Sequence record: DRR378314_2131
Length of the DNA stretch: 53,565 bases
Strand: one strand, 5' to 3'
How positions within the stretch are numbered: the first letter of the stretch is position 1; each line of letters starts with the position of its first letter. The translations under genes and the position numbers were made by a program. The notes below the pieces were generated by a model. It was not told the DNA's origin and made no database searches. It saw only the letters and a list, made by a program, of their open reading frames with translations. Shown here piece by piece: positions 26,053-42,767 of this stretch.

Positions 26053-26054
26053 GC

Positions 26055-26849: not shown

Positions 26850-26862
26850 GGTTGGTATCAAA

Positions 26863-27886: not shown

Positions 27887-28660
27887 CTATGGACTCAACG
27901 TGACTGGACGTTGTTTATTCAACTCTTTCGCAGCAATTGCCATGAAGTTTCGAAGCAAGGCCGCACCATCCTGATCATCCGAATAGTTCTCGACATGCTC
28001 TGGCTCGGTCTGTTCATACATGCAGGACCAGACTGATCGGCGGGATTCCGGATGGAATTGTGTCGTATACCAATGGTTGCCGTGGTCGATACAGATGGCG
28101 TTGCTCTCACCGATGCGGGCCAGTACCTTTGCTTTCTGCGCTTCTGACGGAATCACATGCAGATAGTTGGCAAAGTTGAAACGGGGGAATGTGGACAGGC
28201 CTTCAAAAAGGGGGTGCTGGCGCCCAAGGTCTGTCAGCTCAATCTCATAGGTTCCGGCAAGCGTACCTCCGGTACGGCCATCAAGCACGCCATCCTCGAA
28301 CTGCGTAGACACCAATTGATGTCCACCACAAATGCCAAGCAAAGGTTTCCCGGCATCGCGATACCGGCGCAACCAGGAATAGAGCGCGTGCAGCCAGGGG
28401 CGGTCCTCGGTGACTACATGCATCGTGCCGCCGAGGATGACACAATCGACATCATCCACCGCAGGCAGTGCATCACCGCGACAAATGTCGACGCCGGATA
28501 GTGAAAAACCCGTTTCCTGCGCCACGGGTCCAAACCAGTCCACGATCCAATCTTTTTCCTGGCCGGAAGTACACAAGCCTCCAAAGTGATCGGGGTTGAA
28601 AAGCTCATTCTCACCCAACATGGAAATGAACAGCAAAGAGTTCCCGGCTGTATCGGTCAT
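27887..28660 (-). CDS. Type 1 glutamine amidotransferase-like hydrolase
   Basis: Catalytic triad motifs PLLGICGGHQL and QFHPES. Confidence 0.85.
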   Translation of the reverse strand: MTDTAGNSLLFISMLGENELFNPDHFGGLCTSGQEKDWIVDWFGPVAQETGFSLSGVDICRGDALPAVDDVDCVILGGTMHVVTEDRPWLHALYSWLRRYRDAGKPLLGICGGHQLVSTQFEDGVLDGRTGGTLAGTYEIELTDLGRQHPLFEGLSTFPRFNFANYLHVIPSEAQKAKVLARIGESNAICIDHGNHWYTTQFHPESRRSVWSCMYEQTEPEHVENYSDDQDGAALLRNFMAIAAKELNKQRPVTLSP

Positions 28661-28738
28661 GGTATTTCTTTCGCGATCTTGGGCGGGCAGACGCTGCGGC
28701 CGCCCCGATGTTCAATGATTGAAGAAATCTAGCTCAAA

Positions 28739-28750
28739 TTGTATACCAAT
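28739..28750. promoter_or_regulatory. GntR/FadR-type operator, copy 1
   Basis: TTGTATACCAAT (reverse complement ATTGGTATACAA), upstream of the GATase gene. Confidence 0.65.
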
Positions 28751-28798
28751 TCAATGATTTTAACTGGATAATCTACCAAAATGTGCCCCAATGAAGAT

Positions 28799-28812
28799 AT
28801 AGGTATACCTAT
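28799..28812. promoter_or_regulatory. GntR/FadR-type operator, copy 2
   Basis: Perfect 14-bp palindrome ATAGGTATACCTAT. Confidence 0.7.
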
Positions 28813-28818
28813 GAAGGA

Positions 28819-29481
28819 TCACTCTGCTTCAAAAAGAACACCGCCTTCCTCTTGGATGGCATCCAGACGCGACACGACCACTCTGAGATAGGTTTTGTGG
28901 ATCGAGGCCGTCAACTTGATATCGCCGATCTCCAGACTGCGGCGCAATATTCGGATCTCATCCTTCAAATCCTCGACTTGGACGCGCATCTCGACGCGAT
29001 CCAGCAACAAGAACCAAAAGCGCGCGGACTGATAGAATAATGTGTCGTTGATATCCTCCAGCACCGCGTTGGTGGTCAACCCATGCAGGATTTTGTGCAA
29101 GCGCAGAAGCACGCGCGCGAATTCGCGTTTGTCGTGACTATCCAGCATCGCATCGCACCGCGCTTCCAACTCGCGCATCTCGTCCAGTATGGCCGGATTC
29201 CGAGGGGACGGAGCGGAATCACCCAGCGCATCCATGAGCCTCATGCGCACGATATAGACATCGCGCATGGATTTCAGATCGATTGAGGTAACGATGGTGC
29301 CATGCCCGTGCTGGCTGGAGATCAGACCGATGTGTTCAAGCTTTTGCAGCACGGCCCGCATCGGCGTGCGGCTGACGCCAAATTCCGTTGCCAATTCCCG
29401 CTCGTTCAGGCGCGTTCCCGGCTGATAGTCAAGAAGGCAGATACGCCGGCGCATCTCGAGATAGATATCGTTCTTCGTCAT
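28819..29481 (-). CDS. GntR family regulator (FCD domain)
   Basis: PGTRLNERELATEFGVSRTPMR wHTH with a helical C-terminal domain. Confidence 0.92.
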   Translation of the reverse strand: MTKNDIYLEMRRRICLLDYQPGTRLNERELATEFGVSRTPMRAVLQKLEHIGLISSQHGHGTIVTSIDLKSMRDVYIVRMRLMDALGDSAPSPRNPAILDEMRELEARCDAMLDSHDKREFARVLLRLHKILHGLTTNAVLEDINDTLFYQSARFWFLLLDRVEMRVQVEDLKDEIRILRRSLEIGDIKLTASIHKTYLRVVVSRLDAIQEEGGVLFEAE

Positions 29482-29516
29482 GCGTTGCTCACTATCGATA
29501 ACGGGTATTCGCCAAC

Positions 29517-30482
29517 TTATGCCATCCACGTGAGAAAACTGTCCATATCAACGTTGCCGCCCGTCACCAGAGCAACGACGGTCTGCCCTTGCAAGGCGCG
29601 TTTGTTTGACACGGCTGCGGCCACTGAAACTGCGCCGCCGGGTTCGGCAACAACCTTGAGCTCTGTGAACAAAGTCCGCATTGCGGCAACAACATCTAGC
29701 TCGTTGACGGAATAGCCACCCGACAGGGTCTTCAGGTTGATTGGAAAGGTTAGCTGTCCGGGTCGCGCGGTCACGATCGAGTCGCAAATCGAGCTGTGAC
29801 CCGGCTCAATCGACAGGGCAGTTCCCGCTTCTAGAGAGCGCTTGGTATCATCAAAATTCCGGGGTTCAGCCGCCCAGATTTCAGTGTCCTCATGGCGCGC
29901 GAGCATGGCAGTAGACAGCCCGGCGATTAGCCCGCCACCTCCGGCAGGGCAAATGACTCTGTCCGCCCTTACGCCAAGCGCGTCCAATTGCTCAGCTATT
30001 TCCAGCCCAGTTGTACCTTGCCCGGCCATCAGGTCGTAATCGTCATAGGGCGGCACCAGCGTTGCGCCGGTTTTTTCGGCGATGTCCTGGGCTATTTTGG
30101 CCCGGTCACCCGTCTGTCGGTCATAGGTGATAACCTCGGCCCCCCACTGGGCGGTGTTGTCCAGCTTTATGCGGGGCGCATCTGCTGGCATCACTATCTT
30201 AGCCGAAACCCCCATCGCGTTTGCGGCAGCCGCAACGCCTTGTGCGTGGTTGCCGGATGAATATGCCACGACCCCTGCCTTGCGCTGGCCTTCGCCAAGC
30301 GACGCAATCTTGTTGTAAGCACCACGTATTTTGAACGAGCCGGTCTTTTGCAGGCAATCCGATTTGATCAGCAACCGGAACCCAAGCGCGTTGTTGAGCA
30401 GTGGAGATTCCAACAACGGGGTTCGGATCACGACATCCTGTAACCGCTCGGCAGCCTGAGTGATCATTTCAATGGTCAACAC
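29517..30482 (-). CDS. PLP-dependent threonine/serine dehydratase-like enzyme (EutB-like)
   Basis: GSFKIRGA, SSGNHAQG, GGGGL, EPGGA and TGGNVD motifs. No ACT domain. Confidence 0.88.
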   Translation of the reverse strand: MLTIEMITQAAERLQDVVIRTPLLESPLLNNALGFRLLIKSDCLQKTGSFKIRGAYNKIASLGEGQRKAGVVAYSSGNHAQGVAAAANAMGVSAKIVMPADAPRIKLDNTAQWGAEVITYDRQTGDRAKIAQDIAEKTGATLVPPYDDYDLMAGQGTTGLEIAEQLDALGVRADRVICPAGGGGLIAGLSTAMLARHEDTEIWAAEPRNFDDTKRSLEAGTALSIEPGHSSICDSIVTARPGQLTFPINLKTLSGGYSVNELDVVAAMRTLFTELKVVAEPGGAVSVAAAVSNKRALQGQTVVALVTGGNVDMDSFLTWMA

Positions 30483-30486
30483 TGCG

Positions 30487-31290
30487 TCACGTCCCCACCT
30501 GCAAAGTTGAATGAAAGCGGCGTAGAAGGGCGATCACGCTTCGGGCGGTGATGATGCCGGTAGCCGGGTTTTCAGAGCTCGGCCGGTTCTGAATAGACAT
30601 TGTGAAATCCGAGCTGTCGGAAGTTACCTCTACCGAATGTGTGTTTCGCGTCAGGGATGGATCAGCCCAGACCTCCATGCGGGTCTTGTCTGGACCAAGC
30701 CCGGCCATGCTGATCGCTGCCGCGACATTCACGTTGGCGGGGAATTCGCGTGCCACTTCGGTGACACTGCCTGCGATCACTTGTTTTGGCCCTTGAAGCG
30801 CGGTTAGATCCATGCCCAACCGCGCGACAAAAGGTGCCCTGATAAGGCTTTCGACCGGTTTGCGGGTCACTATTGTGACCGAATGAATCTGGCCGACATT
30901 CACTGCATTCAACGCGTCCAGACCCAGCATCGCACCTGATGCGACCATAATGCGGCTACCGTTTTTCGCCGCAAGAGAGATTAGGTCGTCCCGGGCAAGC
31001 AACTGGCTGGCCGAAAGCACAACCAGTTGCTTGCCTGCCCGCAAAACCGGGTCAGCCAGATCGCCGAACAATGCGGGGGGGAGAGCTTCGATCACACAAT
31101 CACAGGTCAAGGCCAACGTTCCGAAATCCACTACATGCGCCGGATGTTTCAGAGTATCATTCAGGGCAGCCGCCTTTTCGCTGGTTCGCGCCGCCAGACC
31201 ACCCAGCGCACATCCTGGAACTTCACCGTTGTCCAATGCGCGTGCAACCGCCGCACCGACAGCTCCGATACCGGCAACTCCAATTCTCAT
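30487..31290 (-). CDS. Aspartate dehydrogenase-like protein (NadX family)
   Basis: GIGAVG, SGAMLGLD, FPANVNVAAA and NTHSVEV motifs. Confidence 0.85.
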   Translation of the reverse strand: MRIGVAGIGAVGAAVARALDNGEVPGCALGGLAARTSEKAAALNDTLKHPAHVVDFGTLALTCDCVIEALPPALFGDLADPVLRAGKQLVVLSASQLLARDDLISLAAKNGSRIMVASGAMLGLDALNAVNVGQIHSVTIVTRKPVESLIRAPFVARLGMDLTALQGPKQVIAGSVTEVAREFPANVNVAAAISMAGLGPDKTRMEVWADPSLTRNTHSVEVTSDSSDFTMSIQNRPSSENPATGIITARSVIALLRRFHSTLQVGT

Positions 31291-31350
31291 AACAGGTCTT
31301 TCTTTGGTGGCGGTTCCTCGGGAACCGTATCATGACGTCAGGTGCAAGGC

Positions 31351-32166
31351 TCAATCCGCCGCTTTTACTGCTGACAGGAATTGCTGTGTGCGTTCGCGTT
31401 TGGGATTGCCGAACAGATCCTCCGGAGGACCCTGTTCTTCGATCTTCCCTTGGTAGAAGAAACAAACGCGATCTGAAATGTCACGCGCAAAGCCCATCTG
31501 GTGTGTCACCATCAACATGGTGAGGTTGTGCTCGGCCACCAGTTTGCGGATGACGCCGGTCACTTCACCGATTACCTCGGGGTCAAGCGCCGAGGTGACT
31601 TCATCAAACAGCATCACCTTTGGGCGCATGGCCAACGCCCGGGCGATAGCAACACGTTGTTGCTGACCACCCGACAGGCGCGAAGGATGCTGGTCCTTCT
31701 TGTCGATCATACCGACCATCGACAACAATTCTTCGGACCGTTCTCGGGCCTCAGCCGTTGGCAAACCCAGCACCTGCACAGGCCCTTCCATGCAGTTCTG
31801 TAGGGCGGTCATATGTGGAAACAGGTTGAAATGCTGGAAACACATGCCGATTGAGGACCGGGCCCGGCGCAGGTATTTCGCGTCCGCCGGCACCAGAACC
31901 CCGTTCTTTTCCATATGGGTAAGCGGTTTGCCGTCGACATAGATCACACCACCATTGATGGTTTCCAAAGTCATCAGCATGCGCAGAACGGTGGTTTTGC
32001 CCGATCCGGACGGGCCGATCACGGTGACCATCTCACCCTCCGACACGTCCAGATGCAGACTGTCCAGTACGGTCAGGGCACCATAGCTTTTGGTTACGTT
32101 CATGAACCGCACCATTGGCACATCGGGCCCACTTAACTCAGTTGGGTATTGAGACATATCTTCCAT
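31351..32166 (-). CDS. ehuA: Ectoine/hydroxyectoine-type ABC transporter ATP-binding protein
   Basis: GPSGSGKTTVLRMLMTLE, LSGGQQQ and MLFDEVTSALDPE motifs. Confidence 0.88.
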   Translation of the reverse strand: MEDMSQYPTELSGPDVPMVRFMNVTKSYGALTVLDSLHLDVSEGEMVTVIGPSGSGKTTVLRMLMTLETINGGVIYVDGKPLTHMEKNGVLVPADAKYLRRARSSIGMCFQHFNLFPHMTALQNCMEGPVQVLGLPTAEARERSEELLSMVGMIDKKDQHPSRLSGGQQQRVAIARALAMRPKVMLFDEVTSALDPEVIGEVTGVIRKLVAEHNLTMLMVTHQMGFARDISDRVCFFYQGKIEEQGPPEDLFGNPKRERTQQFLSAVKAAD

Positions 32167-32834
32167 CAGTTCATTCCCAGTTTCTTGCGCACCCAGGCCT
32201 CAAAGAGTTTGATCAACCCGGCTGCGGGCAGTGAAATCGCCAGGAAGATGATCCCGACCATGGTATAGGGTTCCAAATACCTGTAAGTTGACCCACCAAT
32301 GGCATTCGCCGCCTGCATCAGCTCGGCCACGCCGATAACCGACAGCATCGGTGTGTCCTTGAATATCCCAACCAGGTAATTGCCCATCCCAGCCATTGAG
32401 GGCGGCAGGGCTTGGGGGATGATAACGCGAAAATAGGTCTTGGTCGTGCTCAGGTTCAGTGCGGTGCAAGCCTCCCACTGTCCTTTCGGCACCGACTCGA
32501 GGCCGCCGCGATAAACCTCGGACAGGTAGGCCGAATAATGCAGCCCGATGGCGATCATCCCTGCCACCCAGGGGCTGAGGCGTATCCCGAATTGCGGGCC
32601 GACAAAGAACACAAAGAAAATCTGCAGCACCAGCGGCGTCGATCGGATGAATTCGACACATTCCCGCACCACCATTGTGACGATGCGCGACGGTGTGCGT
32701 TGCGCCAGTGCAAAAACCAGCCCCAGTACCACTGCGATCCCATAGCCGATTCCGGCAGCGGCCAGCGTGTTCAGCGTGGCCTGTAAAAGCCGGGGAAGAA
32801 TTTCAAAGGTAAAATCCCAACGCCAGTCAAACAT
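32166..32834 (-). CDS. ehuD: Ectoine-type ABC transporter permease
   Basis: WRWDFTFEILP, IRSTPL, GLHYSAYLSEVYR and FKDTP motifs. Confidence 0.85.
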   Translation of the reverse strand: MFDWRWDFTFEILPRLLQATLNTLAAAGIGYGIAVVLGLVFALAQRTPSRIVTMVVRECVEFIRSTPLVLQIFFVFFVGPQFGIRLSPWVAGMIAIGLHYSAYLSEVYRGGLESVPKGQWEACTALNLSTTKTYFRVIIPQALPPSMAGMGNYLVGIFKDTPMLSVIGVAELMQAANAIGGSTYRYLEPYTMVGIIFLAISLPAAGLIKLFEAWVRKKLGMN

Positions 32835-32837
32835 AGC

Positions 32838-33503
32838 TTACGCCCTCCCCAATTTGCGTGCCATGAAGCGTTCGAGCCACCGCATGAACGGCGTCACGAT
32901 CAGCCGCGCAAGAATGTAGTAAATTATCAGTGCTGTCCCGAAAGCCTGCGCTGACAGGAAGGTGGAGCCGTTTATTTGCTTGGCTTCGAACATCAGGTCA
33001 GTAACCGAAATCAACGACACCAGCGCGGTCGCCTTCAGCAGTTCGATCATCAGGTTGCCCCAAGGCGGCAGCATGTTCAAAAACGCCTGTGGCAGGATGA
33101 TCCGATACATCCGTTTGGCCGGAGACATCGAGATCGCATAAGCCGCTTCCCACTGCCCTTTGGGCACCGACTGAATGCCGCCACGCACGAGTTCGGCACC
33201 ATAGGCCCCGAGGTTCAGCCCGACCGCAATGAAACCGGCAAAGAACTTGTCCAGCGTCAATCCGAACAGCGGCAGGACAAAGAAAATCCAATAAAGCTGC
33301 ACTAAAAGAGACGTGCCCCGGAAGATTTCAATGTAAACGCCGGCCGTCCAGCGCACCGCAATATTCCGTGACAGTTTCATCAACCCTGCGGTCAGAGCGA
33401 GCACAATGGCAAGCGCTGCCGACAGAAAAAACTGCGCGATTGTGACCAGCGTTCCGTCCAGAAAACGCGGCGCGTTTTCGGCGAGAAATTCCCAATATGA
33501 CAT
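32838..33503 (-). CDS. ehuC: Ectoine-type ABC transporter permease
   Basis: FRGTSLLVQL, GLNLGAYGAELVRG and IELLKATALVS motifs. Confidence 0.85.
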   Translation of the reverse strand: MSYWEFLAENAPRFLDGTLVTIAQFFLSAALAIVLALTAGLMKLSRNIAVRWTAGVYIEIFRGTSLLVQLYWIFFVLPLFGLTLDKFFAGFIAVGLNLGAYGAELVRGGIQSVPKGQWEAAYAISMSPAKRMYRIILPQAFLNMLPPWGNLMIELLKATALVSLISVTDLMFEAKQINGSTFLSAQAFGTALIIYYILARLIVTPFMRWLERFMARKLGRA

Positions 33504-33568: not shown

Positions 33569-34414
33569 TCAACGGTTCTGGCAAATCCATTCGGTTTTCA
33601 CGCTTGGATCCGGAACCTGAAATTCAGTGTATTCGTATGGCGCAACGGCGGCCAACATCTCTTCTGAACCCAAGTACTCTGCCTGCGCGGCATTGAAGGC
33701 CTCAAGAAAGTCGCTGTCTTCCGGGCGGAAACCGATACCAACCCAGTTCTGGGTCCATTCGGGCAACGCGTTAGGATCGGTGACCTCAAGCTCGCCATCG
33801 GATTGGGCCGCCAGGTTTTGCGCCGTGAAGAACGTCATAGCACCTGCGTCAGCACGACCAACACGCATTGCGGCTAGCACCTCAGTTGGCCCGGGCACTT
33901 CGAGGATCTGCTCGGCTGCCACGCCTTCGCGTTTGGCGGCATCAACCGTGTTGTAACCGGCGCCAGTGACCATCGTGGCCCCCTGATCTTTGATGTCAGC
34001 ATAAGAGGTGATGTTCTTCGGGTTGCCAGCGGGAACCACAAAGGCATCGCCAAAAATCCCCATCGGCTCGGAGAAATCAATGCTCTCACAACGCGCTTCA
34101 AGAATGTACATGCCACCCGTGATGATATCAAAGCGATTGGCTTTGAGGCCCGGGATCAATCCACCCCAATCTGTCACGACGGGCTCGATGTTGTCGTAGC
34201 CCATTGCCTTCAGGACACCCAGCGTGTGTACGTTTGCAAATCCAAGTGGTGCGTCGTTGTCGCCGGGGTAAGACCACGGCACTTCATTGGAGAAACCAAT
34301 CCGAATGGTCTCACCACTTTCGATACGATCCATGAGTGGACCCGCCAGCGCCGATGTCGCGACACCCACAATGGTTGTCGCGGCGATAATAGTGGTTCTT
34401 AGTATTTGGCTCAT
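33569..34414 (-). CDS. ehuB: Ectoine-type ABC transporter substrate-binding protein
   Basis: Signal peptide, IGFSNEVPW, WGGLIPGL, GGMYI and GNPKNI motifs. Gene order ehuB-C-D-A. Confidence 0.8.
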   Translation of the reverse strand: MSQILRTTIIAATTIVGVATSALAGPLMDRIESGETIRIGFSNEVPWSYPGDNDAPLGFANVHTLGVLKAMGYDNIEPVVTDWGGLIPGLKANRFDIITGGMYILEARCESIDFSEPMGIFGDAFVVPAGNPKNITSYADIKDQGATMVTGAGYNTVDAAKREGVAAEQILEVPGPTEVLAAMRVGRADAGAMTFFTAQNLAAQSDGELEVTDPNALPEWTQNWVGIGFRPEDSDFLEAFNAAQAEYLGSEEMLAAVAPYEYTEFQVPDPSVKTEWICQNR

Positions 34415-34450
34415 TGGTCTCTCCCTGATTGATTCTCTGATCTACGGCGT

Positions 34451-34463
34451 ATTGGTATACCTT
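34451..34463. promoter_or_regulatory. GntR/FadR-type operator, copy 3
   Basis: ATTGGTATACCTT, 36 nt upstream of ehuB. Confidence 0.7.
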
Positions 34464-34546
34464 TTTGGGAAGCTCCTCAACATAAATTTGCAATTTCGCA
34501 AAAATATCCCAATAATTAGGGGCCTATCATGAACAGCGCCAGCCTC

Positions 34547-34575
34547 TTGACTTATCATTGGTATACCTTAACAGT
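34547..34575 (+). promoter_or_regulatory. Probable sigma70 promoter containing GntR operator copy 4
   Basis: TTGACT (-35, 34547-34552) followed by ATTGGTATACCTT (34557-34569) in the spacer. Confidence 0.65.
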
Positions 34576-34612
34576 CGACGCAGTGGAATCAATCTCAGTT
34601 AGGAGACACCGA

Positions 34613-35770
34613 ATGATCGAACACGCCCCGTTCCCAAAAGAGGAGCTGGACCACCGACTCAACCGTGTAAAAACCGTCCTGTCCGAGCAGAATCTGGACG
34701 GGATCGTTATCTCGGTGCCCGAAAACATCTATTATCTGACCGGTTTGGACCACTGGGGGTTCTTTGCTGCCCATGTTCTCGTTGTGAACCGAGATGGCGA
34801 GATGGCGCTGATCTGCCGGGCCATGGAAAAGATCACGTTTGACAATCAGGTGAGAAACGCCCGGTTCTATGGTCATCAGGATCACGAAGAGCTTTCTGAC
34901 TACGTGGTACAGGCGATGAAGGACCTAGGCCTGTCCGGTGGTCGCGTCGCGCTCGAAAGGCGCAGCCTGTTCTTGCACCTGCATCATGCCGAAGGGATAT
35001 TGGCAAAGGCGGAGGGCGTCGAATGGGCGGACGGATCCGGTCTGGTCGACAACCTGCGACAGGCAAAATCCCCGCTGGAAATCGAATACACACGCAAGGC
35101 CGCCAAGGCCGCAGATGTCGGCATGAGCGCTTGCATTGACCTGATCCGCGACGGCGCGACAGATTATGAGATTGCCGCGGAGTACATGCGCGCCTCGACT
35201 CTGGCGGGTAGTGAGCCGACCGGCTTTGGCCCGTTCATTCGTCCAGCCACACGCTCGGGCGAAGAGCATACGACCTGGCGTGGCGAAACCTTCCGAACTG
35301 GTGACGCGGTGTTTCTGGAAAATGCCGCATCCTATCGCAAATATCACGCGCCTATGGGCCGGTTGGTCTTTGTGGGCAGCGCGCCGGAGGGGGCTGAGAA
35401 ATCGGCAGAGCTGGCCATGGACGGCATGAAGGCAATCTGCAGTGCATTGAAAGTAGGCGGCAAGGCCGGGGAGGCATACGCCGCCTGGCGCGAGGTAGCC
35501 GCAAGCGGCGGCTTGGCAGACTACGAACGGCATCATTGCGGTTATATGGTGGGCATCGGATTCTCACCCAGTTGGACAGGTGGGTCCATGGTAACCAGCC
35601 TCTTCCCCGGGTCAGAACGCACGCTGGAGGTCGGCATGGTGTTCCACGCCCACAGCTGGTTCACAGACACCGACGTCGTCGACTACTTCATCTCGAACAC
35701 GGTCATTCTCACCGAAGATGGTGCCGAAGTGCTGACCGCCACAACACCTGAAAGCCTTGTCATAAAGTGA
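34613..35770 (+). CDS. M24-fold hydrolase, DoeA/EutD (ectoine hydrolase)-like
   Basis: ENIYYLTG, KSPLEI, FLENAASYRKYHAPMGR and GMVFH motifs. Lacks the prolidase metal ligands, as DoeA does. AGGAG RBS. Confidence 0.75.
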   Translation: MIEHAPFPKEELDHRLNRVKTVLSEQNLDGIVISVPENIYYLTGLDHWGFFAAHVLVVNRDGEMALICRAMEKITFDNQVRNARFYGHQDHEELSDYVVQAMKDLGLSGGRVALERRSLFLHLHHAEGILAKAEGVEWADGSGLVDNLRQAKSPLEIEYTRKAAKAADVGMSACIDLIRDGATDYEIAAEYMRASTLAGSEPTGFGPFIRPATRSGEEHTTWRGETFRTGDAVFLENAASYRKYHAPMGRLVFVGSAPEGAEKSAELAMDGMKAICSALKVGGKAGEAYAAWREVAASGGLADYERHHCGYMVGIGFSPSWTGGSMVTSLFPGSERTLEVGMVFHAHSWFTDTDVVDYFISNTVILTEDGAEVLTATTPESLVIK

Positions 35771-36600
35771 TGACACGCACCGAAAGGCACACAATGCTGA
35801 CGCAAGAACACATGACCGCTTATCGAAACGATGGCGTGGTTCAGATCAAAAACGCATTTTCGCAGGAATGGTTGGACGAAGTGCGAAGTTCGATTGAATT
35901 TGGTCGCGCCAATCCGGGGCCGATGTATCTGGACTATTCCAAAGACACCAATCCGGGCACCTACTGCACAGACATGTGGATCTGGCGCGAAAATGCCCAC
36001 ATGAAGAATTTCATTTTCAATTCTCCAGCGGCAGAACTTGCAGGCGAAGCGATGGAGGCCAGTTCCGTTGCACTCGTGACTGACAATTGGCTGGTGCGCG
36101 AGGCCGGCGCGGTCAACAGAGCGCCCTGGCACCATGACAACCCCTATTTCGATGTCAGCGGCGAATGGTGTGTACTGTGGATGGGACTTGAACCCGTTCG
36201 TCAGGGTGAGGGCGTGGTCTTCCTCAAGGGTTCGCACAAATGGGGGCGCAGATTCATGCCTCTCAGCTTTGCCGGCACCGGACAAAAGGCAGCACTACAG
36301 GAACCCTATGAGCCCACACCGGACTTCACTGAAAATCTGGATGATTATGACGTGCTGGAATTTGATCTGGACCCCGGTGATTGCCTGATCTTCGATTCCC
36401 ATACATTGCATGGCGCCCCCAACCCTGTACCGCCTGAACGTACCGTCAACCGTCTGACAATGCGCTTCGCCCACGGGAATGCAGCGTTTGAAAAACGAGG
36501 CAGTTGGACCGACGCGCAGACAGAATACTGGCAGGCTCATGGAATGAAGGAAGGTGAACCCATTGTAGGCGAACTGCTGCCGCTTGTGTGGAGCCGGTAG
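35770..36600 (+). CDS. PhyH-family Fe(II)/2-oxoglutarate dioxygenase
   Basis: PWHHD (HxD), GSHKWG, PGDCLIF and TLHGA motifs. ATG 35794 is an alternative start. Confidence 0.88.
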   Translation: MTRTERHTMLTQEHMTAYRNDGVVQIKNAFSQEWLDEVRSSIEFGRANPGPMYLDYSKDTNPGTYCTDMWIWRENAHMKNFIFNSPAAELAGEAMEASSVALVTDNWLVREAGAVNRAPWHHDNPYFDVSGEWCVLWMGLEPVRQGEGVVFLKGSHKWGRRFMPLSFAGTGQKAALQEPYEPTPDFTENLDDYDVLEFDLDPGDCLIFDSHTLHGAPNPVPPERTVNRLTMRFAHGNAAFEKRGSWTDAQTEYWQAHGMKEGEPIVGELLPLVWSR

Positions 36601-36705
36601 CTGTATTTGAACGAACATCAGTCGCAAAGGTTTCGATGGTTGAATATGCCACTGAGCTAGTAGCCAACGAAACGGCACAACTCCAGCTCTAGAAGGTCTC
36701 TCCTC

Positions 36706-37944
36706 ATGGTCCTGGCGCTACTCAAATACGGTCTCTCTCGACGCTATCCGGTGCGTGAGGAGATTCCCCGAACCCCTGATCTGAAAAAACACTACGACGT
36801 CGTGATCATAGGTGGCGGCGGTCACGGAGTGTCGCTTGCCTATCATCTGGCGACGAAACACGGCATAACAAATATTGCCATTCTGGAAAAAGGCTACCTG
36901 GGCGGCGGCAACACAGCGCGCAATACCACGGTGATCCGCTCCAACTACATCACCTCGCAGTCAATCAAGTTCTATGCCGCTTCTATGCGGCTCTATGAAA
37001 GCCTGGCCAACGAGCTGGACTACAACCTGATGTACTCCCGCCGGGGTCAGCTGACCCTGTCTCATTCCGATGGCGTTTCGCAGGCGCTGCGCCTACGGGC
37101 GGACAGTGGCACATTTCTGGGTGAACGCAACGAAATCCTGGATCGTCAGCAGATCAAAGAGCTGGTGCCCAGTCTAAACCTGGATATTGAAGGTCGCCCA
37201 ATCCTCAAAGGTTTGTGGCACCCGGATGCTGCCACCGCGCGGCACGACGCGGTTGCTTGGGGATATGCCATCCGTGCTTGTGACCGCGGTGTGGAATTGC
37301 ACCAGAAAACTCAGGTGACTGGTCTGACAGTGGACAGGAATAAGGTCACAGAAGTGCAGACCAATCGTGGCAATGTCTCGGCTGGGGCTGTGGTGCAATG
37401 TGTGGCCGGGCATTCCTCGGTTGTGGCTGCCATGGCCGGGCTACGCTTGCCGATCCGCAGCTTCCCGCTGCAGGCCATGGTGACCCACCCGGTGAAACCC
37501 TTCCTAAACCCGATGGTCTCCTCCACTGCGCTGCATTGCTATATTTCGCAATCCGCCCGTGGCGAGCTGGTGATTGGCGGGGGTTCTGATCCTTATGAGC
37601 TCTACAACACTCGCTCAACGCTGGACATGAAGGAAAGTCTGGCGGCCTCCGCGCTGGAGATGTTTCCCTTCATTGGGGATCTGAAAATTCTGCGTCAATG
37701 GGCGGGTATCACCGACATGACGCCGGATTACAGCCCGGTCATGGGACGTTCGCCATTGGACAACTACTGGCTGGATGCGGGCTGGGGCACATGGGGATTC
37801 AAGTCGACCCCCGCCAGCGGTTTCTATCTGGCACAGGCAATTGCTGAAGACCGGGTGCCGGAAATGATCCATCCCTTCCGCCTTGATCGTTTCGACACTT
37901 TTGACCTGGTTAATGAAATGGGTGCCACAGCGGCCAGCCACTAA
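36706..37944 (+). CDS. soxB: Heterotetrameric sarcosine oxidase / N-methylglutamate dehydrogenase-type beta subunit
   Basis: GGGGHG, GNTARNTTVIRSNY, ARHDAVAWG and GWGTWGFK motifs. Confidence 0.88.
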   Translation: MVLALLKYGLSRRYPVREEIPRTPDLKKHYDVVIIGGGGHGVSLAYHLATKHGITNIAILEKGYLGGGNTARNTTVIRSNYITSQSIKFYAASMRLYESLANELDYNLMYSRRGQLTLSHSDGVSQALRLRADSGTFLGERNEILDRQQIKELVPSLNLDIEGRPILKGLWHPDAATARHDAVAWGYAIRACDRGVELHQKTQVTGLTVDRNKVTEVQTNRGNVSAGAVVQCVAGHSSVVAAMAGLRLPIRSFPLQAMVTHPVKPFLNPMVSSTALHCYISQSARGELVIGGGSDPYELYNTRSTLDMKESLAASALEMFPFIGDLKILRQWAGITDMTPDYSPVMGRSPLDNYWLDAGWGTWGFKSTPASGFYLAQAIAEDRVPEMIHPFRLDRFDTFDLVNEMGATAASH

Positions 37945-37956
37945 GGGACAACGCAA

Positions 37957-38235
37957 TTGAAAATCATGCACTGTCCGTTGAACGGACCCCGCAACATTTC
38001 CGAATTCATTTGTTACGGCGAATTCCACAACCATCCCGACCCGGACAAGACTTCCGACAAGGATTGGGCCGAGTACGTCTGGCTCGCCAATAACGCCGCT
38101 GGCGTAGTGCGCGAATGGTGGTGCCATACGCCGACCAACTACTGGTTCATTGCCGAACGTAACACCGTGACAGACGAAATCCTTCGAACCTATCCATCCG
38201 AGGACCTTCGCCCATCCGAGGAACTCCGATCATGA
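37957..38235 (+). CDS. soxD: Sarcosine oxidase/Mgd-type delta subunit
   Basis: CPLNGPRNISEF, EWWCH and ERNTVTDEI motifs. Confidence 0.88.
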   Translation: MKIMHCPLNGPRNISEFICYGEFHNHPDPDKTSDKDWAEYVWLANNAAGVVREWWCHTPTNYWFIAERNTVTDEILRTYPSEDLRPSEELRS

Positions 38236-41099
38236 CTCAAATCACTCGAACCGGCGCGCTGATCGACAGCACGAAACCGATCACTTTTTTCTTTGAGGGA
38301 AAACGCTACTCCGGTGTTCAGGGCGACACCATTGCCTCGGCCCTGGCGGCCAATGGGCAATGGGTTCTGTCGCGCAGCTTCAAATACCATCGCCCGCGCG
38401 GGGTGCTGACCATGGCCGGTCAGGACGCCAATACATTGGTGCAGATCGGCAATGAGGTCAGCGTTTTTGCCGACCGTCACCCGATTTCTGAAGGGCTAGA
38501 GATCAAGGCTCAAAACGTCAACGGTTCCTTGGAGAAAGATCGCGACTTCTTCATGAACCGTATGGGGCGTTTCATGCCTGTGGGGTTCTATTATCGCACT
38601 TTCTATAAGCCTAAAGGCATCTGGGAGAAAATCTGGGAACCGCTGATCCGTGCCAAGGCGGGTCTGGGCACTATGGATATCAATGCGCCCGAAGACGGTT
38701 ATCACGACAAAGCTTATGGCTGGTATGATGTGGTTGTGGTGGGTGCCGGTCCTGCTGGTCTGGCTGCGGCGCTAGAGGCGGCCAAGTTGGGTGGGTCTGT
38801 TCTGCTGGTTGATGAAAATCCACAGCTGGGCGGCGCGGCGACCTATGCACGCGGCATGAATTTGCAAGACCTGATCGATCATGTCGAGGCGATGGAAAAC
38901 ATCGAGACTTGGACTGACGCCGTCTGTAATGGCTGGTTTGCCGACAATTGGCTGGCGGTGATCCAGGGTAACCGATTGCACAAAATCCGGGCGCGTCAGT
39001 TGGTGCTTGCCACAGGACTGATCGAACAACCCGCGCAATTCCGCAACAACGATCTGCCTGGGATTATGCAGGGTTCCGCTGCGCAGCGTTTGATAAAATC
39101 TTACGGTGTCACACCGGGGCAGACGGCAGTTGTTCTGGCGGGCAACGATGACGCCTATGGTGTGGCTCTTGACTTGGTGGATGCAGGTGTTTCCGTCACT
39201 GTCTGCGAACTGCGCAAGGAGGCGGAAGGGCCATTGCGGGCACAGGTTCAGACAGTGGGGCTTACCATCCACGATGGCTGCTGCATCTATGAGGCCTTGC
39301 CCGGGCCAGGCCACAAGCATGTGCGGGGCGTCTCCATTGCCGAATTGGACGACGCGGGTGCAGCGACTGGTAAGCAGCGGATGCTACCGTGCGATCTGGT
39401 CTGCATGTCGGTGGGCTACACACCAACCTATCAGCTCGCTGTGCAAGCTGGCGGCAAAGTTGGGTATGACGATAAAACGGCCATGTTCTCGATCACTGGG
39501 CACAACGCCGACGTTGGTCTCGCTGGATCAATGGATGGCCGATACGCGCTGGAGCGCTGTGTAGCTCATGGCACGGCCATGGGTGCGCGGGCTGCGGCCC
39601 GGCTGTCGGAGGCTGATGCCCCGGAAGCGCCAGACAAATGCGCCACTTCGCCCAATTACCCCTGGCCGATTTTCCCACATCCTAAAGGCAAGGATTTTGT
39701 GGATTTCGACGAAGATCTGCAAATCAAGGACATCAAGAATGCGGTTGCCGAGGGCTACCGCGAACTGGAATTGGTTAAACGCTTCTCCACCGTTGGCATG
39801 GGGCCTAGCCAAGGTCGGCACGCGGCGCTGCCGACCGCACGCCTGGTCGCCAAACACTCCGACCGCTCTGTTGCGGAAGTGGGGGTCACCACCGCGCGAC
39901 CACCTTTTACAACGGAAAAGATTGCCACGCTGGCGGGACGTAAGTTCACGCCGATGCGCCGCACGCCGATGCATTCCCGGCATGAGTCAGCCGGAGCAGA
40001 ATGGTTGCTGGCAGGGAATTGGCAACGTCCGGCTTATTATGGGCGGGGCAATGCTAAGAAGACCATTGCGCTCGAAGTCAGTAATGCGCGCACCAACGTC
40101 GGTATGATCGATGTTTCAACGCTTGGTGGGTTGGATGTGCGCGGTCCTGATGCGGCAGAATTCCTCAATCGGATGTACACATTTGCCTATGCCAAACTGC
40201 CCATCGGCAAAACACGTTACCTGCTGATGACCAATGAGGCGGGTACAGTGATTGACGACGGTGTGGCTTGCCGCATTGCCGAGGATTACTTCTACATCAC
40301 CGCAACCACCACCGGCGTCGACAATATCTACCGTAATATGCTGTGGTGGAACGCCCAATGGCGGTTGGACGTGGATATTGCCAATGTGACCGCAGCCTAT
40401 GCCGGCGTGAACCTTGCCGGACAAAATGCCCGTACGGTGCTTAACAAGCTGACAGATGATATCGCCACTGGCGCTGAGGATTTCCCGTATCTCGCTTATC
40501 GCGAGGGGCATGTGGCAGGCATTCCCGCTCGGGCTTTCCGGGTCGGTTTCATTGGTGAGTTGGGCTACGAAATCCATGTGCCCGCGCGTTATGGCGGGGC
40601 GCTTTGGGATGCTATTGCAGAAGCGGGTGCCGAGTTTGGCATTCGCCCCTTCGGGCTGGAAGCACAACGCGTCATGCGACTGGAAAAGGGCCATGTGATT
40701 GTTGGCCAGGACACCGACGGTATGACCACGCCGGAAGAGCTGGACATGATCTGGGCGGTGGCCAATAAGAAACCATTCTTCGTCGGCAAACGCAGTCTGG
40801 AATTGCGCAACAAGACGCTTAGGGATCGTAAATTGGTCGGCTTCTCCCTGGATGAGATGCCTACGGCTGGATTGGAAGAAAGCAATCTGGTGATCAAAAA
40901 TGGTGAGATCGCGGGCTTTGTGACGTCGATCTGTCAGTCGCCTTCGGTGGGCAAGGTCATTGGTCTGGCCTATGCGGCCCGCTCTGACAGCGAGACCGGT
41001 GCGAAGATCACCTTGCGTGCCAGTGACGGAAGCCTGCATCAGGCAACCGTTTGCTCCCCCCATTTCTACGACCCCGACAACCAGCGGCAGGAGATGTGA
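38232..41099 (+). CDS. soxA: Sarcosine oxidase/Mgd-type alpha subunit
   Basis: RSFKYHRPRG, GAGPAG and GMGPSQG motifs, plus a GcvT-like folate domain (DVSTLG, RLEKGH). Confidence 0.9.
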   Translation: MTQITRTGALIDSTKPITFFFEGKRYSGVQGDTIASALAANGQWVLSRSFKYHRPRGVLTMAGQDANTLVQIGNEVSVFADRHPISEGLEIKAQNVNGSLEKDRDFFMNRMGRFMPVGFYYRTFYKPKGIWEKIWEPLIRAKAGLGTMDINAPEDGYHDKAYGWYDVVVVGAGPAGLAAALEAAKLGGSVLLVDENPQLGGAATYARGMNLQDLIDHVEAMENIETWTDAVCNGWFADNWLAVIQGNRLHKIRARQLVLATGLIEQPAQFRNNDLPGIMQGSAAQRLIKSYGVTPGQTAVVLAGNDDAYGVALDLVDAGVSVTVCELRKEAEGPLRAQVQTVGLTIHDGCCIYEALPGPGHKHVRGVSIAELDDAGAATGKQRMLPCDLVCMSVGYTPTYQLAVQAGGKVGYDDKTAMFSITGHNADVGLAGSMDGRYALERCVAHGTAMGARAAARLSEADAPEAPDKCATSPNYPWPIFPHPKGKDFVDFDEDLQIKDIKNAVAEGYRELELVKRFSTVGMGPSQGRHAALPTARLVAKHSDRSVAEVGVTTARPPFTTEKIATLAGRKFTPMRRTPMHSRHESAGAEWLLAGNWQRPAYYGRGNAKKTIALEVSNARTNVGMIDVSTLGGLDVRGPDAAEFLNRMYTFAYAKLPIGKTRYLLMTNEAGTVIDDGVACRIAEDYFYITATTTGVDNIYRNMLWWNAQWRLDVDIANVTAAYAGVNLAGQNARTVLNKLTDDIATGAEDFPYLAYREGHVAGIPARAFRVGFIGELGYEIHVPARYGGALWDAIAEAGAEFGIRPFGLEAQRVMRLEKGHVIVGQDTDGMTTPEELDMIWAVANKKPFFVGKRSLELRNKTLRDRKLVGFSLDEMPTAGLEESNLVIKNGEIAGFVTSICQSPSVGKVIGLAYAARSDSETGAKITLRASDGSLHQATVCSPHFYDPDNQRQEM

Positions 41100-41101
41100 T
41101 C

Positions 41102-41710
41102 ATGGACAATCCAATCGCACAAAGCCCCTTTGCTCATCGTTTGCGCGACACTCGCCCGACAGTCAGCGGCGGTGTGAAGATTACCGACCTTTCCGCCTTG
41201 CCGCGCACCGGCTTCAAAGGCCGAGGCACCCGCGACTGGCTGGCATCTCAAGTTGGCACCATGCCAGACGCCCCCAACCAAGCCGCCTTTCAAGACGATG
41301 GCACAGTCATCGCCTGGCTAGGCGGGCAGGAATACCTGGCACTGCCTGATCCAGAGGGTCGTTCCACCTTCTGCGCAAATCTGACGAAGGCCTGGGATAC
41401 AGCGCGGTCCACTAGCACTCAGGGCATCGGCTTTCCGCTGCCTCGGGAAGACAGCCATAGTTGGCTGTGGATCACCGGCGCAGATGTACCGTCGATGATG
41501 GCCAAGATTTGTGGTGTGGATCTGCGGCCTGACGTCTTTGCGGAAGGGGACGTGGCGCAAACCGTAGTTGCGCGGCTCGGTGCCATCCTGCTGCGCCAGG
41601 ATCGCAACGGCGAGTTCGGGCTTTATATGCTGAGCGATTTTGCTTCCGGCCATTACCTGTGGGATGTCCTACAAGATGCGGCGGCGGAATATGGCGGAGG
41701 ATTTGTCTGA
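41102..41710 (+). CDS. soxG: Sarcosine oxidase/Mgd-type gamma subunit
   Basis: Position after soxA; RTGFKG, KICGVDL and YLWDVL motifs. Confidence 0.82.
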   Translation: MDNPIAQSPFAHRLRDTRPTVSGGVKITDLSALPRTGFKGRGTRDWLASQVGTMPDAPNQAAFQDDGTVIAWLGGQEYLALPDPEGRSTFCANLTKAWDTARSTSTQGIGFPLPREDSHSWLWITGADVPSMMAKICGVDLRPDVFAEGDVAQTVVARLGAILLRQDRNGEFGLYMLSDFASGHYLWDVLQDAAAEYGGGFV

Positions 41711-41711
41711 G

Positions 41712-42767
41712 ATGCCAAGCTACCAGTTTAACTCGGACAATGGTGCACCGGTTTGTGACGAGGTGATGCAGGCTTTGATCGCCTGCAACACTGGCGTTGA
41801 GACAGCTTATGGCGCGGATCAGTGGACCGAGCGTTTGAACCCGGCATTTTCCGAGTTCTTCGAGCGTGAAGCCTTTGTCTTTCCCGTGCCCACGGGTACA
41901 GCAGGCAACGGTTTGGCTCTGGGCGCGATCACGCCACCCTATGGCACTATCTTTTGCCACCGCCTAGCTCATGTGGTCACCACCGAATGTGGCGCGCCGG
42001 AGTTTTACTCTGGTGGTGGGCGCATGACTTTACTGAGCGGGGCGCACAATAAGATCACGCCGCAGGCCTTGCGTCAGGCGCTCTCCGATCATGGCATCGG
42101 CAACGCCCATCATATGCAGGCCAGCGCGCTTTGTCTGACCCAGGCCACCGAATGCGGTGTCACCTATGGGTTGGAGGAATTAGCTGAACTGAATGCCATC
42201 GCTCACGGTACGGGCATGAAGACCCATCTGGATGGGGCGCGGTTTTCCAATGCGCTCGTCCACCTGGGCTGTTCCCCTGCGGAAATGACTTGGAAGGCGG
42301 GTGTTGATCTGCTGACCTACGGCACCACCAAAAATGGCACGATGAACGCTGAAGCCGTGATCACATTTGATCCGGCCATCGGCGCGGCGCTGCGCTTCAT
42401 GCATAAACGAGCAGGGCACCTTTCGTCGAAGATGCGCTACATGTCCGCCCAGCTCCTTGCCCATTTGGAGGATGATCTGTGGCGGACAAATGCGGCCCGC
42501 GCCAATGGCAATGCCACACGTATCCTCGCTGCCTTGCACGCCTGCCCAGGGGTCGAAGTTGTCCATCCGGTGCATATCAACGAAGTCTTTGTTCAGTTGC
42601 CGCTTGCGCTAGAGGCAGCGCTAGTAAAGGTAGGATTGTCCCTGCGTCCCTGGGTTTGTGACGGGCAAGGCAATGGAGTGCGCATGGTGATGTCCTATGC
42701 GGATGAGGAATCCCACTTGGAAATTTTTGAACATACCTGTCGTAATTTTTCGAAAAACTGCAATTAG
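41712..42767 (+). CDS. Low-specificity L-threonine aldolase-like PLP enzyme
   Basis: FNSDN, AYGAD, TGTAGN, ECGAPEF, HLDGARF and GTTKNG motifs. Confidence 0.88.
   Translation: MPSYQFNSDNGAPVCDEVMQALIACNTGVETAYGADQWTERLNPAFSEFFEREAFVFPVPTGTAGNGLALGAITPPYGTIFCHRLAHVVTTECGAPEFYSGGGRMTLLSGAHNKITPQALRQALSDHGIGNAHHMQASALCLTQATECGVTYGLEELAELNAIAHGTGMKTHLDGARFSNALVHLGCSPAEMTWKAGVDLLTYGTTKNGTMNAEAVITFDPAIGAALRFMHKRAGHLSSKMRYMSAQLLAHLEDDLWRTNAARANGNATRILAALHACPGVEVVHPVHINEVFVQLPLALEAALVKVGLSLRPWVCDGQGNGVRMVMSYADEESHLEIFEHTCRNFSKNCN

Follow-up and report, generated by a model that had tools for sequence, protein, structure and literature searches.

An island joining an ectoine-type importer and M24 hydrolase to sarcosine-oxidase-type genes: candidate catabolism of an N-methylated amidino- or guanidino-carboxylate

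Which compound is consumed by means of a gene island that begins like an ectoine cluster and continues like something else? The question is posed by a 14.9-kb cluster at 27887..42767 of sequence record DRR378314_2131, which is 53,565 nt long and is referred to here, as a whole stretch, as the window (all coordinates are those of the whole stretch). Open reading frame (ORF) and protein-family scans resolve two divergent arms. The leftward arm encodes, in order, an EhuB-like binding protein, EhuC, EhuD, EhuA, an aspartate dehydrogenase (AspDH), a pyridoxal phosphate (PLP) fold-II dehydratase, a GntR/FCD regulator and a class-I glutamine amidotransferase (GATase); the rightward arm encodes a Creatinase_N/M24 hydrolase, a PhyH dioxygenase, SoxB, SoxD, SoxA and SoxG types, a threonine-aldolase type and a ProC-like protein. 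Families and order are as listed in a first-pass annotation, which had proposed that an ectoine-like transporter and ring hydrolase are wired here to an unrelated lower pathway for an N-methylated or cyclic amino acid.

Comparative analysis makes it rather probable that this is a mobile, self-regulated island for catabolism of an N-methylated amidino- or guanidino-carboxylate of ectoine- or creatine-like character. The substrate is likely to be a small zwitterion in which a delocalised cation of the amidinium or guanidinium type is combined with a carboxylate and an N-alkyl (most likely N-methyl) group; it would resemble ectoine or creatine but is probably neither. The enzyme families are all known. 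The novelty lies in how they are combined and in the seeming exchangeability of components; literature searches for the combination turned up no account of such a gene set.

Recurrence of the gene set and exchange of its parts

A search of 72,556 plasmids with the M24 protein returned 16 records, 9 of them at 69-71% identity. Five rhizobial plasmids were inspected (Mesorhizobium sp. 131-3-5, M. amorphae, Mesorhizobium sp. AR07, Rhizobium sp. CB3171 and Rhizobium sp. CCGE531), and all five carry the same set. One arm encodes an NAD(P)-binding protein, GntR, AspDH and EhuADCB, the other M24, a 71-aa ORF, an amidase, SoxB-D-A-G types, the aldolase and a Thr/Ser dehydratase; purU lies 3' of the dehydratase in four of the five loci, those that extend that far. 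(The CCGE531 operon is split ahead of soxB by an IS630 element and a GlxA-type regulator.) Identities of the window proteins to those of two rhizobial clusters are 84-85% for EhuA, 58-63% for EhuB, 70% for M24, 82% for SoxB, 71-72% for SoxA, 53-54% for SoxG, 66-69% for the aldolase, 62-64% for the dehydratase, 61-65% for GntR and 56-58% for AspDH; the rhizobial NAD(P)-binding analogue of the ProC-like protein, encoded beside GntR, is 26% identical. Recurrence of the set on five of five plasmids implies that the Ehu/M24 head and the Sox/aldolase tail constitute a conserved unit. Non-conservation of the set had been named in the first-pass annotation as grounds for giving its proposal up; joint recurrence at 53-85% protein identity instead bears out that the ectoine-like front end and the Sox/aldolase back end belong together.

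Marine loci carry PhyH. Its orthologues (56-96% identity) account for 7 of the 80 genome loci that were kept and for 5 of 7 metagenome loci, and on long contigs they are found with M24 and EhuBCDA in L003 (Shimia abyssi), L099, L004 (Arenicellales), L005, L007 and L100, all except L007 also having a GntR match. GATase accompanies PhyH in these long-contig loci, except that in L005 an amidase replaces it; GATase adjoins the cluster in L001, L003, L004, L007, L099 and L100. AspDH and the dehydratase are present in L001, L003, L099 and L004, and AspDH adjoins ehuA in the window, L003, L099 and all five inspected rhizobial plasmids. In L002 the aldolase and the ProC-like gene directly follow PhyH. 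Sox genes are missing from seven of seven genome loci and five of five metagenome loci with a PhyH orthologue (presence or absence of Sox rests on subunits other than SoxD), and four PhyH-only genomes searched have no SoxB above 54% identity. Conversely, the plasmid search yielded no PhyH orthologue, the best match being 35% identical. Among species representatives the island is rare, with a PhyH orthologue in 1 of 401 genomes (family) and an M24 orthologue in 2 of 401 (class).

Two positions of the island are thus filled by different enzymes. The oxidative slot is occupied by Sox in rhizobia and by PhyH in most marine loci; the window, the nearly identical strain G001 and one more organism (organism B, discussed below) have both. 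The amide-hydrolase slot holds a class-I GATase in marine versions and an AtzE/GatA-like amidase with a 71-aa protein in rhizobia. PhyH without Sox and Sox without PhyH look like alternative N-dealkylases rather than successive steps. The fixed sequence of ring opening, hydroxylation, N-demethylation and cleavage that had been drawn for the window does not fit this distribution, since PhyH is missing in rhizobia and Sox in most marine loci.

A more distant relative of the arrangement occurs on a Shinella sp. plasmid (NZ_OZ000531.1, 285654-306766; locus L125), where GntR-EhuADCB diverges from a tandem pair of M24 genes, after which come SoxB, D, A and a gamma-like ORF. The Shinella M24 is 46% identical and belongs to a more distant clade, which is again joined to EhuADCB and SoxBDAG. 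Paired M24 genes also occur in L007; the extra M24 copies group with a EutD-like protein in the tree. In L001, a metagenome-assembled contig, M24 directly follows AspDH (2881-5052), with the four Ehu genes missing between them.

Its distribution and surroundings make the island appear horizontally mobile. In S. abyssi (L003, 11547-20151) VirB/Trb-type type-IV secretion genes start ~700 bp past PhyH, which suggests that the island there resides on a plasmid or integrative element. G001 has the same island at 99.1-99.7% identity. An insertion sequence (IS), an IS6-family (DDE_Tnp_IS240) transposase gene at 27040..27768 (minus strand; Pfam E 8e-40), abuts GATase and forms the left boundary of the island. 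It also lies at the right edge of a 13.7-kb block, 13256-26985 (RpiR-type regulator, inositol-type cluster and sugar ABC, or ATP-binding cassette, transporter), that is missing from an otherwise 97-99.7% identical G001 contig; its position there marks the block as a strain-level indel. A gene of the GFA (glutathione-dependent formaldehyde-activating) family, 12577-13131, lies by itself, with a sugar-utilisation cluster on one side and the RpiR regulator on the other. On the Mesorhizobium sp. 131-3-5 plasmid (L123, 87-3726) the cluster is adjoined by MocD/E/F-type genes (sterol-desaturase family, MocE ferredoxin and flavin adenine dinucleotide (FAD) oxidoreductase), as in rhizopine catabolism; that the inositol-type cluster of the window lies on the same side may be coincidence.

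Operators, regulator and transcription

Three copies of the palindrome GGTATACC are present in the window, where 0.12 would be expected, and none of 100 shuffles reaches three. All three copies fall inside spacers of the cluster, at 34454 and 34560 in the divergent region between ehuB and M24 and at 28802 upstream of GATase, with a near copy at 28738. The divergent control region (34415..34612) holds two exact TTGGTATACCTT sites (34452-34463 and 34558-34569), and the segment upstream of GATase (28738..28811) two operator-like sites, TTGGTATACAAT and TAGGTATACCTA, the second of which contains GGTATACC. The M24 start is most likely at 34613 (385 aa; close relatives are all 385 aa long and the whole query is covered), and this start makes both TTGGTATACCTT copies intergenic. 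Operators shared between the two arms, as claimed in the first reading of the sequence, are accordingly present. The same palindrome is found in the ehuB-M24 spacer of the rhizobial loci L122 and L123, and also in L001, L003, L005, L099 and L100, where it was scored for presence and not for placement relative to genes. The shared GGTATACC sites argue for treating the cluster as one regulon.

The regulator (28819..29529, minus strand; PF00392 and PF07729) consists of GntR and FCD domains and has no aminotransferase domain, which sets it apart from the MocR-type EnuR/EhuR. It probably represses the island.

On the plus strand there is no terminator-like site in the 105-bp gap between PhyH and soxB. 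In three metatranscriptome runs from one marine sample, 11-18% of the sampled words of the stretch are present, and contigs from the RNA libraries cover parts of M24, PhyH, the Sox genes, the aldolase and the ProC-like gene (stretches without such cover are uninformative). Two RNA contigs span the PhyH-soxB junction (36366-36935 and 36289-36815) at ~93% identity. In another run, a single contig from organism B carries PhyH-SoxB-SoxD.

These observations bear on the possibility that the window is a chance mosaic, in which a sox/aldolase module has landed beside an unrelated Ehu/M24/PhyH module on a plastic replicon and shares no pathway with it. An assembly of this kind would suit the lack of Sox from seven of seven genome loci and five of five metagenome loci with PhyH orthologues, the aldolase placed directly after PhyH in L002, the IS element flanking the island, the lack of an operator before soxB and the location of ~60% identical SoxB orthologues in MttB-type clusters of four other Rhodobacteraceae inspected. 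On the other hand, the same juxtaposition recurs on all five inspected rhizobial plasmids, whose Sox orthologues are the nearest known (82%), SoxBDAG is joined once more to a related M24 clade in Shinella, and RNA-library contigs bridge PhyH and soxB. A chance mosaic is therefore highly improbable, and the conserved catabolic unit is the reading pursued here.

The ectoine-like front end

EhuA (the ATPase), EhuD and EhuC (permeases) are encoded at 31351..33503 on the minus strand and form an ABC importer of the polar-amino-acid type. All three score above the NCBI equivalog cut-offs for ectoine uptake (EhuA TIGR03005, 406 vs 345; EhuD TIGR03003, 275 vs 205; EhuC TIGR03004, 243 vs 197), and the EhuB-like protein (33569..34414, minus strand) falls just under its own (TIGR02995, 186.8 vs 190.9). 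A second Ehu cluster in G001, which has other partner genes, likewise passes the Ehu models. Passage of two differently partnered clusters implies that these models are not substrate-specific. A third Ehu-type cluster of G001 (L095, G001:C2:3000-22999) contains a GbdR-like regulator, a EutE-like deacetylase (229 vs 403), a MocR-like gene and a peptidase-like M24, together with EhuB (194.8, above cut-off), EhuC, EhuD, EhuA and an amidase; it looks like a cluster for a different substrate again.

The binding protein is more informative. It aligns with the solved EhuB (2q88) at E 2e-23, and at the positions of the ligand cage, reportedly described by Hanekop et al. in 2007, it has Glu, Trp, Trp, Tyr and Arg where the solved protein has E, F, Y, F and R. 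The Glu and Arg of EhuB are kept, and the three aromatic positions are all changed (W/W/Y for F/Y/F), so that the cage of EhuB is not reproduced. All five pocket residues (E44, W47, W83, Y103 and R108) are retained in 11 of 12 orthologous rows, marine and rhizobial, while the L005 protein keeps three of the five (E44, W83 and R108). Conservation of the pocket suggests one ligand type common to the marine and rhizobial versions.

The M24 'pita-bread' hydrolase (34613..35770, plus strand; Creatinase_N and Peptidase_M24) is of the DoeA/creatinase kind. Relative to the prolidase of Pyrococcus furiosus (1pv9), the residues D, D, H, E and E, which we take to be the metal ligands, are replaced by E, P, Y, H and S; loss of all five implies a metal-free DoeA/creatinase-type enzyme rather than a metallopeptidase. 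Its fold is that of creatinase (Creatinase_N and M24 without a dinuclear metal site), without close kinship to the solved creatinases: the match to 1chm has E 2.5e-6, and that to solved DoeA E about 2e-41. Nor is it DoeA at the equivalog level (TIGR02993, 147 vs 613; NF038259, 210 vs 575). The segment that reads RHHCGYMVGIGFSPSWTGG is aligned with ARCGYPIGISYPPDW--GE in solved DoeA; the motif quoted in the first-pass annotation is thus present and unlike that of the solved enzyme. The window M24 and its orthologues group by themselves in a maximum-likelihood tree, as a clade separate from the EutD-like protein of G001.

That EutD-like protein, encoded elsewhere in G001, is near-canonical (584 bits vs a cut-off of 613). 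It lies (L094, G001:C11:9000-28999) by an ArgE-like deacetylase gene and DMT-type transporter genes, flanked by IS1182-/IS3-type transposases; no EutE, EutABC or EnuR was found within the 20 kb read around it. Two other M24 genes of G001, examined for a canonical creatinase, are both peptidase-like (four further M24 matches lie outside that check).

The remainder of a canonical ectoine pathway is missing from the window. The protein-family scan covered 49 ORFs (small ORFs of <100-150 aa only in part), and none of these belongs to the DoeB/EutE, DoeD, EutA, EutC or MocR-type families; nor is there a DoeC among them, the sole aldehyde dehydrogenase (17640-19070) sitting in the inositol-type cluster. 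The earlier statements that the canonical ectoine lower pathway is lacking, and that this is not a canonical ectoine cluster, hold on all three counts of DoeA scores, missing families and a GntR rather than MocR regulator.

How far, then, does the likeness to ectoine catabolism (EhuABCD with EutABCDE/DoeABCD and EnuR) extend? An Ehu-type importer diverges from a Creatinase_N/M24 gene without metal ligands, the hydrolase would be followed by an amide hydrolase in the same logic as DoeA and then DoeB, and a PLP-dependent (PALP) dehydratase and an NAD(P) enzyme parallel EutB and EutC. An alternative route for ectoine or 5-hydroxyectoine can be built on these parts, in which M24 would open the ring, deacylation would fall to the GATase or amidase and oxidative loss of the gamma-amine to PhyH or Sox, and the dehydratase and AspDH would act as EutB and EutC do on the hydroxylated form. 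Three importer components above equivalog cut-offs with EhuB just below, a solved DoeA as the nearest relative of M24, and the known pathway's ending in aspartate (PMC5924519) would all suit such a route.

Its individual parts fit poorly, however. The aromatic cage residues of the binding protein are all unlike those of EhuB, and the M24 pocket segment differs from that of DoeA (R to H and PPDW-GE to SPSWTGG) in an enzyme that forms a separate clade far under the DoeA cut-offs. The amidohydrolases are of the primary-amide (glutaminase/AtzE) kind, a Cys-GATase or AtzE/GatA-type amidase standing where ectoine clusters have the EutE/DoeB deacetylase. The island has no transaminase, semialdehyde dehydrogenase, EutA or EutC, and adds SoxBDAG types, PhyH, aldolase and AspDH under a GntR/FCD regulator. 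Ectoine has no N-methyl group, yet folate-linked Sox and purU are conserved in rhizobia. PhyH is not EctD-like, and G001 possesses, besides its near-canonical EutD, a further Ehu cluster that includes EutE-like and MocR-like genes. An ectoine route is therefore unlikely.

Lower-pathway enzymes, candidate substrates and the proposed route

The four Sox-type genes follow PhyH on the plus strand: SoxB, the FAD subunit, of a divergent subfamily (36706..37944; TIGR01373, 466 vs 529); SoxD, delta (37966..38235; PF04267, E 2e-27); SoxA, alpha, with Fer2_4, SO_alpha_A3 and folate-binding GCV_T domains (38232..41099; TIGR01372, 845 vs 1164); and SoxG, gamma, a weak match (41051..41710; TIGR01375, 39 vs 144). 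The beta-delta-alpha-gamma order and the GCV_T domain of SoxA are those of a heterotetrameric sarcosine oxidase, and the TIGRFAM scores are all below cut-off. Of the four SoxB-family genes in G001, two exceed the TIGR01373 cut-off and two are divergent, and the island SoxB is 40-44% identical to each of its three other paralogues there. One of these belongs to a fourth SoxB-family operon (L130, G001:C27:24000-43999; 495 bits, below cut-off) by a polar-amino-acid-type ABC transporter, with a second EutE-like gene ~8 kb off. Copies ~60% identical to the island SoxB occur in five other Rhodobacteraceae genera. The four contexts inspected (L116-L119; G237, G383, G167 and G193) have an MttB-family methyltransferase and a PrpD-like gene, with a DMGDH-like gene in three of the four. 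These clusters also hold a LysR regulator, the PrpD/MmgE-like gene, a 2-hydroxyacid dehydrogenase, an Amdase/racemase-like gene and aminotransferases, and look like an uncharacterised betaine demethylation route.

Retention of GCV_T in SoxA and closure of the rhizobial operon by purU (in four of five loci, those extending past the dehydratase) imply that a one-carbon (C1) unit is the likely leaving group. N-demethylation, postulated at first pass, thereby remains plausible. As a study of homarine shows, Sox-like genes can encode N-methylglutamate dehydrogenases, and the two are known to be confused (PMC13236597).

The Fe(II)/2-oxoglutarate (2OG) dioxygenase of the PhyH family (35767..36600, plus strand; PF05721) keeps H122-x-D124 and H215, the 2-His-1-carboxylate triad, and R233, the 2OG-binding Arg, without exception in 17 sequences. 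Its best solved relative is MysH of palythine biosynthesis (9c9n; E 2.6e-25), followed at a distance by the next (E 6.5e-6), and no EctD structure is among the solved matches at E <0.01. For MysH, hydroxylation at the carbon adjacent to an amidinium nitrogen has been proposed, with C-N cleavage, N-dealkylation and release of glyoxylate (PMC10666671). By analogy, PhyH is a plausible catabolic N-dealkylase. Unlike MysH, to which it is ~30% identical, it lies in a catabolic rather than biosynthetic context with no mys genes near it. Across 73 loci, PhyH homologues at 29-41% identity share no recurring neighbour (the most frequent family appears in 7), and an ESM Atlas look-up returned only 'phytanoyl-CoA dioxygenase family' clusters.

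The kinship with MysH brings in mycosporine-like amino acids (MAAs), which would be catabolised or stripped of nitrogen: M24 would act on the vinylogous amidine, PhyH detach the glycine carboxymethyl group in the manner of MysH, the Cys hydrolase cleave the enaminone, and aldolase and dehydratase consume Thr, Ser and Gly. The cation of these zwitterions is delocalised, the amino acids that MAAs carry (Gly, Ser and Thr) would suit the aldolase and dehydratase, MysH is the only close solved relative of PhyH, and a single literature search found no paper on MAA catabolic genes. Against this stand the low identity to MysH, the occurrence of PhyH homologues at 30-40% in unrelated contexts, and the rhizobial version, which lacks PhyH and keeps everything else. 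No enzyme for the cyclohexenone core is present, and folate-linked Sox and purU indicate an N-methyl group. MAAs are accordingly a very unlikely answer; an N-methylated amidino- or guanidino-carboxylate, with PhyH as one of two N-dealkylases, is preferred.

The step that the first-pass annotation overlooked is hydrolysis of a primary amide. The stand-alone class-I GATase-type amidohydrolase (27887..28660, minus strand; PF00117, E 1e-11) retains its Cys-His-Glu residues C111, H203 and E205 in seven of seven orthologues. The amidase found in its place in L005 and rhizobia matches AtzE (352 bits) and GatA (328 bits) best, and in rhizobia the 71-aa ORF overlaps and precedes it; a small ORF followed by an amidase is also the arrangement of AtzG-AtzE and GatC-GatA. 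One or the other hydrolase is always present in the cluster, and enzymes of both kinds typically hydrolyse a terminal carboxamide or ureido group.

The PLP fold-type-II dehydratase (29517..30482, minus strand; PF00291, E 8e-76) is of the Ser/Thr/3-hydroxyaspartate dehydratase or serine-racemase type. Among NCBIfam models it is matched best by threo-3-hydroxy-L-aspartate ammonia-lyase (NF005454, 305 vs 452), ahead of BhcB (257 vs 550) and EutB (205 vs 413), and its best solved match is the threonine deaminase 1ve5 (E 1e-65); the label 'eutB-like' first attached to it is therefore weaker than threonine/3-hydroxyaspartate dehydratase-like. AspDH (30487..31290, minus strand) belongs to the NAD(P)-dependent aspartate dehydrogenase family (NF009825, 309 bits vs a cut-off of 253). 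The PLP fold-type-I aldolase of the L-threonine/phenylserine type (41640..42767, plus strand; PF01212, E 1e-50) is close to solved L-threonine aldolases (7yvr, E 4e-90; 1v72, E 1e-87) and 81% identical to its counterpart in L002. The gene for the ProC-like, or pyrroline-5-carboxylate-reductase-like, NAD(P) oxidoreductase (42879..43613, plus strand; PF03807; PRK06476, 147 vs 254) begins just past the end of the cluster as given and belongs with the aldolase, which it also directly follows in L002.

Aldolase, dehydratase and AspDH recall the beta-hydroxyaspartate cycle, BhcABCD, which consists of the transaminase BhcA, dehydratase BhcB, aldolase BhcC and OCD-type BhcD. A beta-hydroxy-amino-acid aldolase, a PALP dehydratase with a BhcB-like match and an iminoaspartate/aspartate NAD(P) enzyme formally provide the same reaction trio. 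At the equivalog level the cycle is not present: the L-threonine aldolase is not BhcC, AspDH is not an OCD-type BhcD, BhcA is lacking, and the BhcB score is far below cut-off.

Which specific compounds would use these activities? A sarcosine-yielding N-methylguanidino compound of the creatine/creatinine type is a tentative candidate, accounting for M24, amidase, Sox, purU, dehydratase and perhaps aldolase, but not for AspDH. In its simplest form, for creatine or else creatinine/N-carbamoylsarcosine, M24 would act on the N-methylguanidino carbon, the amidohydrolase free the ureido nitrogen, Sox or PhyH convert sarcosine to glycine and a C1 unit, and aldolase and dehydratase lead by way of serine to pyruvate. 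Creatinase is the founding member of the Creatinase_N and M24 architecture, and the metal ligands are lost here. In common with the route from creatine through sarcosine to glycine, a metal-free M24 amidino-type hydrolase stands beside a four-subunit folate-linked Sox, joined in rhizobia by purU, a serine-dehydratase type and the aldolase. (Actinobacterial sox operons likewise encode heterotetrameric sarcosine oxidase with purU, glyA and sdaA.) The Shinella plasmid has its 46% identical M24 in a minimal GntR-EhuADCB, M24-M24-SoxBDAG cluster, and an AtzE/allophanate-hydrolase-like amidase would suit a small anionic ureido substrate. In a coral Ruegeria population, creatine and sarcosine supported better growth of those strains that had additional 'cre' and soxABDG copies (preprint 10.1101/2020.12.31.424895), a finding with no established link to this cluster.

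Creatine itself, or creatinine/N-carbamoylsarcosine, is nonetheless rather improbable. M24 is far closer to DoeA than to solved creatinase, and G001 already has two canonical soxB genes above cut-off, to which the divergent island SoxB is only distantly related. A urea-releasing creatinase would need no amidohydrolase, yet in the island this is an obligatory extra, as is the always-adjacent AspDH, which creatine leaves unexplained together with the ProC-like gene. PhyH is optional, and a threonine-aldolase type takes the place of serine hydroxymethyltransferase (SHMT).

An N-methylated heterocycle that yields N-methyl-Asn/Asp would account for amidase, Sox and AspDH. To our knowledge there is no natural product of this kind, and such a substrate is doubtful. 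In homarine catabolism (homABCDER and N-methylglutamate dehydrogenase), breakdown of an N-methylated heterocyclic zwitterion gives an N-methyl amino acid, which is then demethylated into the folate pool by a sox-like four-subunit enzyme; the pathway is found in Rhodobacterales and also in non-marine genomes (Nat Microbiol 2026, PMC13236597). Homarine as the identity of the cluster was rejected, the published hom operon being a different gene set: as described there, it comprises a flavin-dependent pair, a peptidase and an aldehyde-dehydrogenase-like protein, none of which is in the island, which has M24, GATase and PhyH instead.

For the broader class of N-methylated amidino- or guanidino-carboxylates, we infer the following order of steps, and the substrate of each, from the enzyme families. 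The Ehu-type importer would take up the zwitterion through a binding protein that has the Glu and Arg of EhuB and a Trp/Trp/Tyr cage. Metal-free M24 would then add water at the amidine or guanidine carbon, and the GATase, or the rhizobial AtzE/GatA-like amidase with its 71-aa partner, would strip the primary-amide or ureido nitrogen as ammonia. Oxidative N-dealkylation would be carried out by the folate-linked SoxBDAG type, the MysH-like Fe/2OG dioxygenase or, in the window, which has both, either or both. Finally, aldolase, Ser/Thr/3-hydroxyaspartate dehydratase, AspDH and ProC-like reductase would deliver pyruvate or oxaloacetate and ammonia.

Several considerations weigh against this proposal. 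Its chemistry is deduced from the families to which the proteins belong, which are 25-45% identical to characterised enzymes, and the leading specific guess leaves AspDH and the ProC-like reductase without an assigned substrate. The scores of EhuA, EhuC and EhuD mean that ectoine uptake may be possible, and the ligand-contact roles of the EhuB Phe/Tyr/Phe, Glu and Arg are presumed from the structure of that protein. The window scan found no GGTATACC operator before soxB or the aldolase, so co-regulation of these genes requires read-through. RNA-library contigs are not proof of a single transcript and may reflect DNA contamination. L002 and L006 have other FAD amine-oxidase-type genes within a few kb, and both slot swaps are drawn from few independent lineages.

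A wider reading, which is speculative, joins these elements into a complete undescribed pathway for a natural product not yet recognised as a bacterial nutrient, possibly an N-methylated cyclic amidine or guanidine carboxylate from legume nodules and soil and from marine algae and invertebrates. Sox and PhyH would be interchangeable N-dealkylases, GATase and amidase would likewise replace each other, and aldolase, dehydratase and AspDH would constitute a non-orthologous beta-hydroxyaspartate shunt converting glycine- or glyoxylate-level fragments to aspartate. One possible lead is rhizolotine, a tetrahydropyrimidine opine of Lotus nodules, on which a search found no literature.

The labels 'ectoine/hydroxyectoine ABC transporter' and 'Xaa-Pro peptidase' family protein given by NCBI are probably wrong for this cluster, and a mislabelled cluster would be misread in metagenomic surveys of osmolyte cycling. 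The exchanges of Sox for PhyH and of GATase for amidase constitute a natural experiment on different enzyme classes filling one pathway slot, and the Rhizobium and Mesorhizobium carriers are genetically tractable hosts for finding the substrate. Its location on conjugative plasmids of rhizobia points to the importance of the same compound in the rhizosphere or nodules. At least one marine metatranscriptome sample shows expression of the cluster, and M24 and PhyH have many metagenomic relatives; the cluster therefore probably indicates a genuine, as yet unnamed flux of dissolved organic matter rich in nitrogen.

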